A stretch of 64,000 nt of DNA from contig CAZVDQ010000003.1 in assembly GCA_964625435.1 (NCBI GenBank), positions 19,589 to 83,588 on the forward strand. Direction: 5' to 3'. This DNA is from an uncultured Mariniplasma sp. GTDB lineage: Bacteria > Bacillota_I > Bacilli_A > Acholeplasmatales > Acholeplasmataceae. A program made the position numbers and the translations under genes. Positions 9,647 through 53,910 of this stretch are shown in pieces (positions within the stretch are counted from its first letter, which is position 1; every line of letters begins with the position of its first letter). The notes beneath the pieces were generated by a model, which was not told where the DNA came from, ran no database searches, and saw only the letters and a list, made by a program, of their open reading frames with translations.

Positions 9647-11602
9647 TTAATCCTCTGTTTTTAGTTCAAATATTAAATCCCTTAATTCTGCGGCTTTTTC
9701 AAAGTTAAGATTCTTCGCTGCATCTTTCATTTCGGATTCTAATGATTTAATCATCTTATCCCTATCTTTTTTAGTAAGTTTATTATAATCCTTATCTTCT
9801 GCAATTAAATCTTCCTTAAGTGAAATTTTATCTCTAATATCCTTTTGGATTGTGATTGGAACTACATGATTTTTTTCGTTAAACTCTTGTTGTAATTTTC
9901 TTCTTCTATTTGTTTCATTAATAGCAAATTCCATTGCTGGAGATATTTTATCTGCATACATAATGACACGGCCATTCTGATTTCTGGCTGCGCGACCCAT
10001 GGTTTGAATTAAACTTCGTTCACTTCTTAAAAAACCTTGTTTATCAGCATCTAATATAGCAACAAGTGAAACCTCAGGTAAATCAAGTCCTTCTCGTAAA
10101 AGGTTTATCCCAATCAAGACATCATATTTTCCTAATCTTAGATCTCTTAGGATTGTAATGCGCTCAAGAGATTTAATTTCACTATGTAAATATGCAACTT
10201 TTACTCCAAGCTGTTTGAAATATCCAGTTAAATCTTCACTCATTCTTATCGTTAAAGTTGTTATCAGAACGCGTTCATTTTCAAGAACTCTTTTTTTGAT
10301 TTCAAAATATAAATCATCTATTTGTCCCTGTGATGGTCTCACTTCAATAACGGGATCCAAAAGGTAAGTTGGTCTGATGATTTGTTCAACTACAGGAATA
10401 TCTTTATTAAGCTCATAAGGGCCTGGTGTTGCAGATAAATAAACAACATTTTTCATCTTACTTTCAAATTCATCAAACTGTAAAGGTCTATTATCCAGTG
10501 CACTCGGTAATCTAAATCCGTGATCTACGAGTGTTTGTTTTCTTGAGCGATCTCCAAAATACATGCCTCTAACTTGAGGTATAGTGACATGGGATTCATC
10601 GACAATCAATAGAAAATCTTCACCAAAGAAATCCATCAAGGTTGATGGTGTTTCACCAGCTTCTCGCAGTGCAATGTGTCTTGAATAATTTTCTATACCA
10701 CTACAAAATCCTATTTCTTCTAGCATTTCCATATCATATTTTGTTCTTTGTTCTATTCTCTGAGCTTCAAGCAACAAATTATTCCCTTTGAAATAAGCAA
10801 TTTGTTCTTGTAACTCATTTTTGATTCTGCGAATCGATTCATTTAATTTTTCTTTATTGGTCATGAAATGGGAAGCAGGAAAAATAGTAGCAAAACTTAA
10901 TGCTTCAATCGCCTGTCCTGTTAAAACATCAAATCGTTTGATTTCTTCAATCTCATCACCAAAAAATGAAATTCTAATTCCTTGAGCTCTTTCGTATGCA
11001 GGAATGACTTCAATTGAATCACCACGCACACGGAATGTTCCTCTATGAAAATCAATATCGTTTCTTTGATACGTTTGTTCAACTAACTTATTGATCAATA
11101 CATCTCTGCCATATTGATCACCCAGACGTATAGAAATCATAGAGTTTTTATATTCGTCCGGATCTCCAATACCATAGATACATGAAACTGAAGCAACAAC
11201 AATAACATAATCGCTTTCAAGTAATGATGAAGTTGCACTATGTCTCATTTCATCAATTTCATCATTAATTGATGAATCTTTTTCAATGTAGGTATCAGAA
11301 GAAACCACATATGCTTCTGGTTGAAAATAATCATAGTAAGATATGAAATATTCAACACGATTATTAGGAAAAAAAGCCTTAAGCTCGCCATATAACTGGC
11401 CAGCTAAGGTCTTGTTAGGGGCGAGTATTAAGGTTTTCTTTTGCACGTGTGAAACTATATTTGCAATTGTAAATGTCTTACCTGTTCCTGTTGCACCCAA
11501 AAGAACCTGTTCTCTTAATCCATTAAACATGTTGTTTTTCAAGGTTTCAATTGCTTTTATTTGATCCCCTTTAGGTGTAAATGGGGCTATTAATTCAAAC
11601 AT
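9647..11602 (-). CDS. uvrB: Excinuclease ABC subunit B
   Basis: GATGTGKT Walker [11 protein letters not shown] beta-hairpin, [15 protein letters not shown]-terminal UVR coiled coil. Confidence 0.98.
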
Positions 11603-11614
11603 TTCCGCACATCC

Positions 11615-13315
11615 TTAAATATCTTTATCTATCTCGTGTGGTTTTGGTACTAAAATACTTTGCGGTACATATAATGGTTCAATAACTGAACTTGCAATAT
11701 TCATTAAATGATCGCCAATACGTTCAAGATTTGATAATATATCAGGATAATTTGCTGCAACGATGAATGTAATTTCACCCTTCTTTAATCTTTCAATATA
11801 TCGATATCTAAATCTCTCTTCGAGTTCATCAACAACATCTTCATTTTCAACAACTCTTCTTGCAATGATGGGATCTATATTTGCAAAACTTTCAAGTGTA
11901 TCATTTAACATCTGTTCTAAGACGTCATATAATTCATTTAAATCTGCTGTTCCATCAACTGATAAAAATTGAGATTCATTATATCGATCACGGAAAAATT
12001 CAACAATATTTGTCAAGTGATCTCCAATACGTTCAAAATCTTTAATTGTATCAAGATCTCGGGAAAGTTTCTTAGAATCGTTTTTATCTAAACCAGCTTG
12101 TGAAATCTTAATTAGGTAATCATGAAGTTTTTGATCATAAGTATCTATCATCATTTCATGAAGATATGCTTCTTCTACGAGCTTAGAATTTTCTTTAAAA
12201 CTATAGGATCTTGTGATATCAAAATAATCCTTAACAATCGATCCCATATATAACAGGACCTTCCTTACAAATTCTAAGGCAAGGGAAGGCGATTCCTTAA
12301 TCAATTTCTCATCAAACATATGTTCGGGAATTTCCTTGCCAGACTTATCCTTCACCACTAATTTAGCGACAAAGATCATCTGATTAATGAAGAAATATAA
12401 AATAATTGTCATTGTTATATTTTGAACAGCGTGTGCTAATGCAATGGAATACATAGAATATTGTGTTAAGAACCTTGTCTCAAACCATTGAATGAAATTC
12501 TCATATGGTATGAGAATAATTAAGAAGAATATAGCTCCAATCATATTAAACATGACGTGAATAACTGCAGCTCTTTTACTTTCAACATTACCACCAATTG
12601 AAGCTAAGAATGCTGTAATTGTTGTTCCTATATTTGCCCCTAATAAAATGGGGATCGCACCATTTAAAGTGATCGATTGAACATCAACATTCAATGCATA
12701 TAATTTTTCAAGTACACCAATAGCAGCTGATGATGATTGAATGATCGCTGTGAAGAATGTTCCAAATACAGATCCTAAAAACCAGTTTGTAGAGAATGTA
12801 TTGAACATATTTTCAGCAGCTTGAGTTGCTGCAAGTGGCTTAAGCCCGGCTGCCATTGTATTTAACCCAACAAATAACATCCCTAAACCAATTAAAACAC
12901 CACCAAAGTGATTAATCTTCTTCTTTTTAATAAACGACATGACGACGCCAAATGCTACAAATACTAAACCGTAATCAGCAATTGGTAAAGCAACAATGAA
13001 TGCCGTAACGGTGGTACCAATATTTGCACCCATAATAATTCCCACTGATTGTGGTAGAGTCATCAAACCGGCTCTCAATAATCCAATCATCAACGCGGTC
13101 GTTGCTGAAGAAGATTGAATAAGCACTGTCAAGATAATACCGACAAATATTCCTTTCAAAGGTGTATTTGTTGTTTTCTCAATAATTGATTTTAACCTGG
13201 TTCCAGCTGCAGCTTTTAAAGAATCGCTCATGAGAGTAATTCCAAATAGGAAAAGTGCAAGTCCTCCAAAAACACTCATTAAATTATCGCTTAGCGTTAA
13301 GGCTATAACAGTCAT
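11615..13315 (-). CDS. Na+/phosphate cotransporter with C-terminal PhoU-like domain
   Basis: Twin QSSS motifs, GANIGTT twice, PhoU-like ERIGDH repeats; AAGGAG RBS. Confidence 0.9.
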   Translation of the reverse strand: MTVIALTLSDNLMSVFGGLALFLFGITLMSDSLKAAAGTRLKSIIEKTTNTPLKGIFVGIILTVLIQSSSATTALMIGLLRAGLMTLPQSVGIIMGANIGTTVTAFIVALPIADYGLVFVAFGVVMSFIKKKKINHFGGVLIGLGMLFVGLNTMAAGLKPLAATQAAENMFNTFSTNWFLGSVFGTFFTAIIQSSSAAIGVLEKLYALNVDVQSITLNGAIPILLGANIGTTITAFLASIGGNVESKRAAVIHVMFNMIGAIFFLIILIPYENFIQWFETRFLTQYSMYSIALAHAVQNITMTIILYFFINQMIFVAKLVVKDKSGKEIPEHMFDEKLIKESPSLALEFVRKVLLYMGSIVKDYFDITRSYSFKENSKLVEEAYLHEMMIDTYDQKLHDYLIKISQAGLDKNDSKKLSRDLDTIKDFERIGDHLTNIVEFFRDRYNESQFLSVDGTADLNELYDVLEQMLNDTLESFANIDPIIARRVVENEDVVDELEERFRYRYIERLKKGEITFIVAANYPDILSNLERIGDHLMNIASSVIEPLYVPQSILVPKPHEIDKDI

Positions 13316-13360
13316 GACTGATCTCCTTGTAATAACATCATTTATTTTGGCAACCCCATT

Positions 13361-13382
13361 AAAAAAGCATCTCGTGATGCTT
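13361..13382 (-). terminator. Terminator-like hairpin inside the 5' leader of the Na/Pi cotransporter
   Basis: AAGCATC-ACGA-GATGCTT then TTTT on the minus strand, downstream of an extended -10 (TGTTATAAT, 13429-13421). Confidence 0.55.
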
Positions 13383-13476
13383 ATCTAGCTGCCAGGTTAA
13401 AGATTGGTATGTCTACTCGTATTATAACATATAATGTTATCATCAAAAAACAGTATTTGAAGAAAACGTTTTATAC

Positions 13477-13507
13477 AAAAAAGAATGCATCAAATTGATG
13501 CATTCTT
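13477..13507 (-). terminator. Intrinsic terminator of the ABC-ABC-marR operon
   Basis: 12-bp perfect stem AAGAATGCATCA/TGATGCATTCTT plus T tract. Confidence 0.75.
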
Positions 13508-21329: not shown

Positions 21330-21520
21330 CTTTATTATCTCTCCTTACATAAAAAACGTACTACCTCATATATTATAACACATACTATGTATGAAATACA
21401 CTTGTATCGACTGCATTTTATCACTTATGAAAACGATTTTATAGGCTATTCTGCTTTGATTATCTTTAATTTATGGTAAAATAACAAATGGTAAAATAAA
21501 ACAAAAAGAATGGTGATTTT

Positions 21521-51905: not shown

Positions 51906-51936
51906 AATATCCCTTCTTTCGTTATAAATCATTATA

Positions 51937-53910
51937 TCATATCTTATATGAGTCTGTAATGGTCTTGTTTAAATATTTGTAGATGTGATTGGTTTTGAAA
52001 TCTGGTCTGTCAAGAAGTTCTAAAACATTTTTTTGTGCTTCATATAAAATAGAATAATCATTATTAAGATCTAAAAATTTAAACTTAAAATATCCGCTTT
52101 GCTCAACTCCAAGAAAATCTCCAGGTCCACGAACTTTAAGATCATATTCACTTAAGATAAATCCATCATCAATTTTAGATAACAATTGAAGTCTTTCTAC
52201 ATCGCTTTTTTCAGAAATTAAATAACATGTACTCTTAAGATTTCCTCTGCCCACGCGACCTCTTAACTGATGGAGTTGACTGAGACCAAAATGCTCAGCC
52301 GCATAAATACCAATGAGCGTTGCTGTAGGAATATCAATACCTACTTCAATCATTGTTGTTGCTATTAAAATACTTCCTGGAGTATAGATAAAGTTTTCCA
52401 TCATACGTTCTTTTTCTTCATTTGGAAGTCTTCCGTGCAGTAAATAAATGGGGCAAGTAAATTTAGAACTTATCTCTTCATAGACTGTATCTATATTATC
52501 TGATACTTTCTCTGAATCTATTGCTGGAACAACTAAAAAGACGTGTTCATTTCTTAAAACAGCAGTTTCAATGGACTGGTATAATTCAGTAATCTGATCC
52601 TTTTGTATATATTTGGTTTCAATAGGAATCCTATGTTGTGGTTTTTCTTTAATAAGACTTAAGTGAGAATCACCAAAAGCAATCATCGCAAGTGTCCTAG
52701 GGATTGGTGTTGCTGTTAAATAGATAACATCTTTTGTGTGTGCTTTGCTAATAAGTTCTTCTCTTGTATTTACACCAAATTTATGTTGCTCATCTATAAT
52801 GACCAACCCTAAATTATTGAATATTACATCATCTTCAATCAAGGCATGTGTTCCGATGATAAGATCATATTCATGATTTCTAATAGATTCTTTCATCTGA
52901 TCTTTTGATTTTGTTTTTCCGCTCAATAAGGCGATATTACACGACTTAAACATTGTTGTAAAATATTGATAGTGTTGATTTGCTAGAAGTTCTGTGGGTG
53001 CCATAAATGAAACTTGCTCATGTGCGGTGATTGCCGCATAAATTGCTAAAAGTACAACAACTGTCTTACCAGAACCCACATCTCCTTGAATTAATCTATA
53101 GCTTGAATATGGCTTTTTAAAGTCTCTAAAAATATCATTCACTGCTTCTTTTTGATCTTTTGTTAATTCATATGGAAGTTCTTCAATAAGTGCTTTAACC
53201 TTGTTTAAATCATATAATTTCGGATCTCTTGAGTGATTGGATAAACGTTGTGCTGAAAGCTTTAGATGAAGGTAAAATGCTTCTTCATATTTGAATCTTC
53301 TTTCGGCTTGATGGATTTCATCTAGGTTTTTTGGAAAGTGTAATTTGTAATAAGCATCTTCTCTACTCAAAAGATGGTACTTTGTTATAAACTCTTTGGG
53401 GATGGTTTCAAATATTAATACTTGATGTTGATCGAAAATACTTTTAATGATTGTTGATAAACTTCTATCATGAATTCCTTCTAGATTATATGTGGGTTTA
53501 ATGGGAACAGTTTTATCTAAATTCATTATTGAAGCAGCAACAATTGTTTTTCGATATAAGTGATAAACACCTTTGATGACAATATCATCTTTGACTTTTA
53601 GTTGTTTTAAAAGATATCCTCTTCCGAAGACAATAATTTCAATCGTTTGTTCAAAAACTTTTGCTTTAAATGTAATTCGTTCCCCCTTCGAAAAACGAAA
53701 CATTTGAGGTTCTGTAATTATCGATGCTTGAACTGTTAATGTATCTTTATCATTTGCTCTTTCTAAAGACGTAATACTAAAATCTTCATATGATTTTGGA
53801 TAATTTAAAACAAGGTCATAGGTAGACCATATGTGGTTGTTTCTCAATATTCTTAACGTGTTAGGCCCAATACCTTTAATCTGATCTAACTTAATATCCA
53901 AAATTATCAC
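51937..53910 (-). CDS. recG: ATP-dependent DNA helicase RecG
   Basis: RLIQGDVGSGKT, MAPTELLA.QH, DEQHKFG, TATPIPRT, QLHQLRGRVGRG, RGPGD..G..QSG. Confidence 0.97.
   Translation of the reverse strand: MIILDIKLDQIKGIGPNTLRILRNNHIWSTYDLVLNYPKSYEDFSITSLERANDKDTLTVQASIITEPQMFRFSKGERITFKAKVFEQTIEIIVFGRGYLLKQLKVKDDIVIKGVYHLYRKTIVAASIMNLDKTVPIKPTYNLEGIHDRSLSTIIKSIFDQHQVLIFETIPKEFITKYHLLSREDAYYKLHFPKNLDEIHQAERRFKYEEAFYLHLKLSAQRLSNHSRDPKLYDLNKVKALIEELPYELTKDQKEAVNDIFRDFKKPYSSYRLIQGDVGSGKTVVVLLAIYAAITAHEQVSFMAPTELLANQHYQYFTTMFKSCNIALLSGKTKSKDQMKESIRNHEYDLIIGTHALIEDDVIFNNLGLVIIDEQHKFGVNTREELISKAHTKDVIYLTATPIPRTLAMIAFGDSHLSLIKEKPQHRIPIETKYIQKDQITELYQSIETAVLRNEHVFLVVPAIDSEKVSDNIDTVYEEISSKFTCPIYLLHGRLPNEEKERMMENFIYTPGSILIATTMIEVGIDIPTATLIGIYAAEHFGLSQLHQLRGRVGRGNLKSTCYLISEKSDVERLQLLSKIDDGFILSEYDLKVRGPGDFLGVEQSGYFKFKFLDLNNDYSILYEAQKNVLELLDRPDFKTNHIYKYLNKTITDSYKI

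Follow-up and report, generated by a model that had tools for sequence, protein, structure and literature searches.

A conserved hairpin in the leader of a Mariniplasma Na/Pi cotransporter gene, most likely an ordinary and rather weak terminator

The internal terminator of the rpsU-dnaG-rpoD operon of Escherichia coli is a partial intrinsic terminator that has no sensor. The pyrBI type, also from E. coli, is a leader-peptide attenuator, where an open reading frame (ORF) runs into the terminator. Na+ riboswitches have an aptamer of approximately 60 nt with two stems, of which P2 competes with the terminator stem, and they use terminator platforms (PMC9337991).

The leader considered here precedes a Na/Pi cotransporter gene of an uncultured Mariniplasma species, a wall-less marine bacterium, and lies in a stretch of 64,000 nucleotides, hereafter the window, whose numbering is used throughout. 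Similar to the rpsU-dnaG-rpoD terminator, its hairpin has a short GC-containing stem, a small loop, a U-tract, and no associated sensor, and this type of element is placed between a promoter or highly expressed gene and genes that are needed in small amounts. It differs in that one and the same hairpin terminates a gene at its 3' end in some species, while in others it stands in the leader immediately after a promoter. With the Na+-I riboswitch (DUF1646 motif, RF03071; PMC9337991), the locus shares a terminator-type platform upstream of a sodium-linked transporter gene. However, the window leader has neither a P1/P2 aptamer with P2 competing against the terminator, nor a covariance-model match. 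The layout of the pyrBI type, as read from sequence alone, is encountered before the orthologous gene in g7, g31, g24 and genome G045, whereas in the window neither a start codon nor a Shine-Dalgarno sequence precedes the hairpin in the leader. The leader element is most likely an ordinary, rather weak Rho-independent terminator that has been retained in the leader.

The transporter operon and its leader hairpin

The transporter, a protein of 566 aa with Na_Pi_cotrans and PhoU domains (Pfam PF02690, 2.2e-58; PF01895, 1.8e-25), is encoded on the minus strand at 11615-13315. Its Shine-Dalgarno sequence AAGGAG (13323-13328, minus strand), seen in the sequence and in the clade alignment, is located 7 nt upstream of the ATG at 13315. 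The uvrB gene (9647-11602, minus strand; assigned by Pfam) follows 12 nt after the transporter stop codon (gap 11603-11614) in the same transcription unit, and this gap is 8-18 nt in nearly all loci of the genus; thus, the downstream genes need read-through of the hairpin. An ortholog of the transporter gene is present in 37 of the 38 Mariniplasma genomes. The window belongs to a group of nine Mariniplasma species, called clade A below, which is monophyletic in the tree (support 96/99). The nine clade-A leaders were aligned from the promoter to the start codon, and the identities quoted for leader blocks are mean pairwise values.

A leader of about 100 nt carrying the hairpin AAGCAUC-ACGA-GAUGCUU and a T-run ahead of the ribosome-binding site (RBS) had been described in an earlier note on this DNA, and it was recovered here with a predicted length of approximately 99 nt. 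The hairpin (13382-13365, minus strand) has 7 bp, three of them G-C, and a 4-nt loop. It runs into a tract of six U residues (13366-13361, minus strand), the first two of which also close the stem. This arrangement, a GC-containing stem-loop and then a U-tract on the transcribed strand, is that of an intrinsic terminator, and the hairpin was called terminator-like by a scan that returned three sites against 0.8 expected. Folded alone, it has a free energy of -7.4 to -7.5 kcal/mol (z -5.6), which places it in the weakest quartile of the reference set for this genome, 346 terminator-like hairpins located 3' of long ORFs (median -9.6 kcal/mol).

Comparison among relatives clearly points to selection maintaining the hairpin, since identity in clade A is 0.84-1.00 in the arms and U-tract and 0.26-0.50 in the flanks. 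The 3' arm and the rest of the U-tract are invariant (both 1.00), while the 5' arm has an identity of 0.84 and the loop 0.39. No change in the U-tract was found in the nine clade-A loci or in the 18 aligned loci of species that carry a second pyruvate kinase gene, pyk2, in front of the hairpin (pyk2-type loci, 18/18). Stem positions are paired in 98.4% of the cells of the clade-A alignment and in 95.8% in the pyk2-type loci. The stem sequence is nearly letter-for-letter constant across the genus. The changes are A-U to G-U or C-G to U-G, all of them compatible with pairing in clade A, and no double compensatory change was found within the genus, while the loop varies in both sequence and length. 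The G-U-compatible changes and the variable loop point to an RNA hairpin and not a DNA operator; an operator palindrome was rejected on the same grounds, the spacer length being variable and the changes of the G-U type. A dispersed repeat was also rejected, as only one other GCATC..GATGC terminator with a T-run occurs in 1.76 Mb, and none in the window when two mismatches are allowed. The hairpin stays with the Na/Pi gene although the upstream neighbour differs among members of the genus.

Outside the hairpin, little of the leader is conserved. The conserved blocks in clade A form only three islands, namely the promoter, the hairpin arms with the U-tract, and the RBS (identity of the RBS region 0.66). 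The 5' part of the leader (13383-13412, minus strand; identity 0.50) is unconserved and unstructured, and the 3' part, at 0.26, is the least conserved block of all. Only about 32 nt separate the predicted transcription start from the hairpin, and the nascent RNA of 43 nt that precedes the 3' arm folds with -2.3 kcal/mol (z +0.66). No antiterminator was found in clade A, where the 5' arm and loop are no more complementary to the leader than to shuffled sequences (duplexes average -3.9 kcal/mol, z 0.0). Between the predicted start and the hairpin, the window leader contains no AUG, and clade A has no conserved one, in agreement with the earlier report that an upstream ORF is absent. Past the hairpin there are two mini-ORFs, neither of which is conserved or preceded by a Shine-Dalgarno sequence.

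The earlier note had proposed a riboswitch or a new aptamer motif, and this proposal did not hold. No structured upstream domain with covariation is conserved in the clade-A leaders, for which RNAalifold returns the 7-bp hairpin alone. In the window, no two-stem aptamer competing with the terminator was found. Rfam searches of the leader (13316-13429) gave no match at E<=10, the models of the Na+ (DUF1646) and Li+ (nhaA-I) riboswitches included. At the gathering score, the window and six related loci likewise gave no match in the leader. An outer pairing of UGGCAGC (13394-13388) with GUUGCCA (13354-13348), which had also been suggested, is possible in the window, but only 54% of cells are paired across the clade. 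Alignment of the orthologous leaders thus confirms a conserved hairpin with its pairing kept, but no consensus structure beyond it. Given a leader without an aptamer, no new class of ligand-sensing RNA is to be expected here, and a false riboswitch lead is removed.

Promoters and regulatory sites

The gene order in the window is pfkA, ppdK, the ABC-ABC-marR operon, a AAAACGTTTT site, the promoter P, the hairpin, the Na/Pi gene and uvrB; pyk2 is absent. The strong terminator that the earlier note had assigned to the upstream operon was found as described, with a 12-bp stem (13507-13481) and a T-run to 13477 (13477-13507, minus strand; -14.3 kcal/mol). This terminator insulates P from upstream transcription. 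Its inner stem (13481-13507) has a GCATCA..TGATGC core like that of the leader hairpin, both in this genome and in its nearest relative. Other members of the clade have marR terminators with different inner stems, with covariation. Chance or local conversion could account for the core common to the marR terminator and the leader hairpin.

The core promoter of Mollicutes, including Acholeplasma, has a -10 element of the TRTG-n-TATAAT type, and transcription usually starts 6 nt downstream of it (PMC5138195). P fits this kind of promoter in its motif and its conservation: it has a TRTG-extended -10 element, TATGTTATAAT, at 13431-13421 on the minus strand, without a good -35 element. The extended -10 element had been noted before, and its motif proved to be invariant in all nine clade-A relatives (block identity 0.94). 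Matches to TRTGnTATAAT number three in the window against 1.04 expected. The other two exact ones lie on the minus strand at 21372-21382, approximately 40 nt upstream of the pfkA start, and at 51931-51941. The 6-nt spacer rule (PMC5138195) predicts a start at an A at about 13414 (13413-13415, minus strand) and, thus, a leader of about 99 nt. The transcription start, the RNA 3' ends and the fraction of read-through at the leader hairpin are all predictions from the DNA.

The palindrome AAAACGTTTT (13463-13472), centred approximately 53 nt upstream of the predicted start, looks like a cre or LacI/CcpA-type site upstream of the -35 region. It is retained in eight of the nine clade-A loci. In every context within the genus, before pyk2 as well as before the Na/Pi gene, AAAACGTTTT(C) is found at a fixed distance upstream of a TATGnTATAAT promoter. 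Sites of this type in relatives include L045:905-920, L046:912-925 and those in L055-L060, and in genera g33 and g26 a similar site, of the AAACGTTCGC type, lies nearer to the TAAAAT box. The genome encodes approximately eight LacI-family proteins, none of which passes as a CcpA equivalog (best profile match 286 bits against a cut-off of 442 bits).

A second promoter position, P2, lies behind the hairpin. TAAAAT is present 27-34 nt before the Na/Pi ATG in 11 of 13 loci of genera g26, g33 and g19, and in 11 of 14 pyk2-type loci, where the box is 27-29 nt before the start. It is the sole promoter candidate after the ppdK terminator in g26, g33 and g19, which points to P2 as the ancestral promoter of the Na/Pi gene. 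A TAAAAT-type P2 is kept in none of the nine clade-A loci. At the matching position, the window has TGcCAAAAT (13344-13352, minus strand), which appears to be a degenerate remnant of P2; a sigma-70 scan from the hairpin to the ATG found no site, this motif being all that is there. In the nearest relative (L002), whose protein is 96% identical, both the TG and the final T of the motif are lost.

The pyk2 loci and the leader ORFs of relatives

The second pyruvate kinase gene, pyk2, occurs in 21 of the 38 Mariniplasma genomes. It invariably has ppdK on one side and the Na/Pi gene on the other, and these loci fall in three separate deep lineages of the tree. It is an extra paralog, approximately 46% identical to the main pyruvate kinase, which is present in all 38 genomes and is the only pyruvate kinase of the window genome (G000 contig C16:24260-25675; L063:458-1876, minus strand). 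The order in pyk2-type loci is ppdK, a terminator, the AAAACGTTTT site, a TATGnTATAAT promoter, pyk2, the hairpin, the Na/Pi gene and uvrB. Since pyk2 sits between the same promoter and the same hairpin, the hairpin is also the terminator of pyk2.

Genomes lacking pyk2 differ in what is left between promoter and transporter. G005 and G011 (L012/L013) have the hairpin and, with it, what is left of the 3' end of pyk2, a match that is statistically significant (z 4.5 and 2.6), and G045 has retained the hairpin. Promoter, remnant and hairpin also follow one another in L044, from Peloplasma aerotolerans M4Ah, a cultured member of the genus. No terminator-like site was found in the long leader of another pyk2-less group, clade B, and G016 has a leader of 43 nt without a hairpin. 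Clade A would have lost pyk2, as opposed to never having had it. A by-eye match to pyk2 in the clade-A leaders was rejected as not significant (best z 1.6), so the polarity for this clade is a matter of parsimony only. Clade A may also never have had pyk2, since a look-alike hairpin is found in the pyk2-less leaders of g24. The hairpin of L089 (g24) shares with the window the ACGA loop and an identical 10-mer, and appears by eye to have changed on both sides of two pairs. These apparent A-U to G-C and U-A to U-G changes in g24 were read without a formal alignment. Judged by eye, the g24 hairpin looks homologous to that of Mariniplasma; g24 hairpins have only 4-5 U residues and are not called by the terminator scan.

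Where pyk2 is present, the nucleotides that directly follow its stop codon can pair with the 5' arm and loop of the hairpin. The resulting antiterminator-like duplex has a mean of -9.3 kcal/mol, as compared with -8.5 kcal/mol for the terminator (z -2.7), and is paired in register in 77.5% of cases. Covariation for an antiterminator was sought in these loci and not found; one pair has changed on both sides, and shuffled alignments are not exceeded. In addition, an AUG lies -1 to +6 nt from the pyk2 stop in 17 of 19 loci, in four of them as UAAUG, and the ORF that begins there mostly enters the hairpin. Examples of the AUG-containing complementary stretch are L010:3263-3337(-) and L015:1366-1440(+). 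The stretch could be an antiterminator that is masked by the terminating ribosome, or it could serve as a re-initiation ORF entering the hairpin.

Leader ORFs are found further afield as well. In g7, which belongs to another family (L064-L071), pfkA is followed by a Shine-Dalgarno sequence (AGGTGA) and an ORF of 18-30 codons, located approximately 20-130 nt upstream of the Na/Pi start. Its UAG stop codon is at the border of the loop and the 3' arm of the terminator (AAAGGTGCT..AGCATC+T7) in seven of the eight loci, and the terminator is placed 20-30 nt upstream of the Na/Pi RBS. The leader peptide is poorly conserved between subclades. The g7 leader ORF is a candidate attenuator of the pyrBI kind. 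L093 (g31), L089/L090 (g24) and L051 (G045) have a TATGATATAAT-type promoter and then an ORF of 19-40 codons led by a Shine-Dalgarno sequence. Immediately ahead of the Na/Pi RBS stands a hairpin, and the ORF ends within it or 1-2 nt short of it. The possibility that the short-ORF peptides of relatives are remnants of pyk2 was rejected, as they have no significant similarity to it. Hairpins just upstream of Na/Pi genes thus recur in four genera (Mariniplasma, g24, g31 and g7) and are often entered by an ORF, a hint that read-through may be a regulated step in the family. Neither of the gating elements of the relatives, the leader ORF and the antiterminator-like strand, is found in the clade of the window.

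A partial terminator and alternative explanations

Considering P as the only conserved promoter, a hairpin placed before needed genes, and nothing in the leader that is able to sense or switch, the simplest explanation is a weak partial terminator without a sensor, damping P-driven transcription into the Na/Pi gene and uvrB. The probability of this reading is put at roughly one half. RNA polymerase starting from P would reach the hairpin after approximately 50 nt, where a fraction would terminate and the rest read through, and so the hairpin would set a low, fixed ratio of promoter firing to transporter and uvrB mRNA. Termination would thus be partial and unregulated, and any regulation would act at initiation via the LacI-type site upstream of P. 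In pyk2-type genomes, the hairpin serves to terminate pyk2, and a separate promoter for the transporter, P2, follows it. With pyk2 absent and P2 decayed in clade A, P and read-through of the hairpin are left as the only conserved route of expression. A point against a terminator without a sensor is that the P2-like TGcCAAAAT downstream of the hairpin might still be firing.

The last point leads to a different explanation, in which this P2-like motif (13352-13344) drives the operon and the hairpin merely stops the transcripts from P. The motif lies 28 nt before the ATG, matching the position of TAAAAT in three other genera and in pyk2-type loci, and has a TG one base upstream of its hexamer. 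However, the first T of the hexamer is missing, L002 has lost both the TG and the final T, and five of the nine clade-A loci do not have the motif at all. The 3' leader that would contain this promoter is the least conserved block (0.26, against 0.94 for P), and a promoter feeding just 50 nt of unconserved RNA is not expected to persist; a pure insulator is therefore unlikely. It is less likely still that the hairpin is a neutral relic, left behind as the terminator of a former pyk2 and now functionless. Two other pyk2-less lineages, clade B and G016, did lose the hairpin, which would fit a dispensable element, but in clade A the flanks are near-random (0.26-0.50) while the 3' arm and the U-tract are invariant in nine species, and such invariance amid diverged flanks is not expected without selection. 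At the far end is a ligand-sensing leader, whether a riboswitch or a new motif, in which an aptamer for Na+, Li+ or phosphate controls the terminator. The presence of a terminator in the leader of a sodium-coupled transporter gene made this attractive, as Na+ riboswitches use terminator platforms (PMC9337991). Against it are the missing Rfam matches (neither at E<=10 in the leader nor, across seven sources, at gathering score), the short, unconserved and unstructured stretch of about 32 nt ahead of the hairpin, and an alignment with no alternative pairing and an outer helix paired in only 54% of cells. Moreover, relatives have no room for an aptamer, with only 15-25 nt between the end of the coding gene and the hairpin. 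A sensing leader is, accordingly, highly improbable.

A conditional attenuator without a sensor in cis deserves more weight than these, although it is still an improbable reading. In such a case, an RNA-binding protein, factors of the NusA/NusG type, NTP pools or, in relatives, ribosomes would modulate termination, and the levels of the transporter and uvrB would answer a physiological signal. The stem that is nearly letter-constant across the genus is consistent with this, as are the recurrence of a hairpin and U-run directly before Na/Pi genes in four genera, the g7 ORF that ends inside the terminator in seven of eight loci (with similar cases in g31, g24 and G045), and the complementary strand and nearby AUG (17 of 19 loci) behind pyk2. 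On the other hand, the clade of the window has no upstream ORF and no antiterminator, the antiterminator helix of the relatives has no covariation support, no candidate binding protein was identified, and the g24 hairpins, with their 4-5 U residues, escape the scan. It is tempting to speculate further that read-through before the Na/Pi-PhoU gene (and uvrB) is a regulated, translation-gated step across Acholeplasmatales. The ribosomes that finish pyk2 or a leader ORF would then decide the fate of the hairpin, and clade A would have a stripped version under a trans-acting factor or the NTP level; this broader scheme is rather doubtful.

The locus is a modest but clean case of regulatory re-use. 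One promoter and one terminator enclose a glycolytic gene in some species and adjoin each other in others, where selection has kept the terminator as a leader element before a membrane transporter gene and a DNA-repair gene. Mollicutes have a small repertoire of transcription factors (PMC5138195). The recurrent layout of an ORF running into a terminator in the relatives offers a lead on how expression may be tuned in these genome-reduced bacteria.

Two smaller observations concern the surroundings of the hairpin and the operon. In g7 and in four pyk2-type species, a terminator and an extended -10 promoter are located between the Na/Pi gene and uvrB. Directly 3' of the U-tract, the sequence [A/C]ATG[A/G] (13356-13360 in the window) is near-invariant in the genus, with an identity of 0.81 in clade A. 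Its UGA is the stop codon of the hairpin-crossing ORF in some relatives, and the [A/C]ATG[A/G] sequence belongs to a TTTTCATGAAAA palindrome in three species of clade A.
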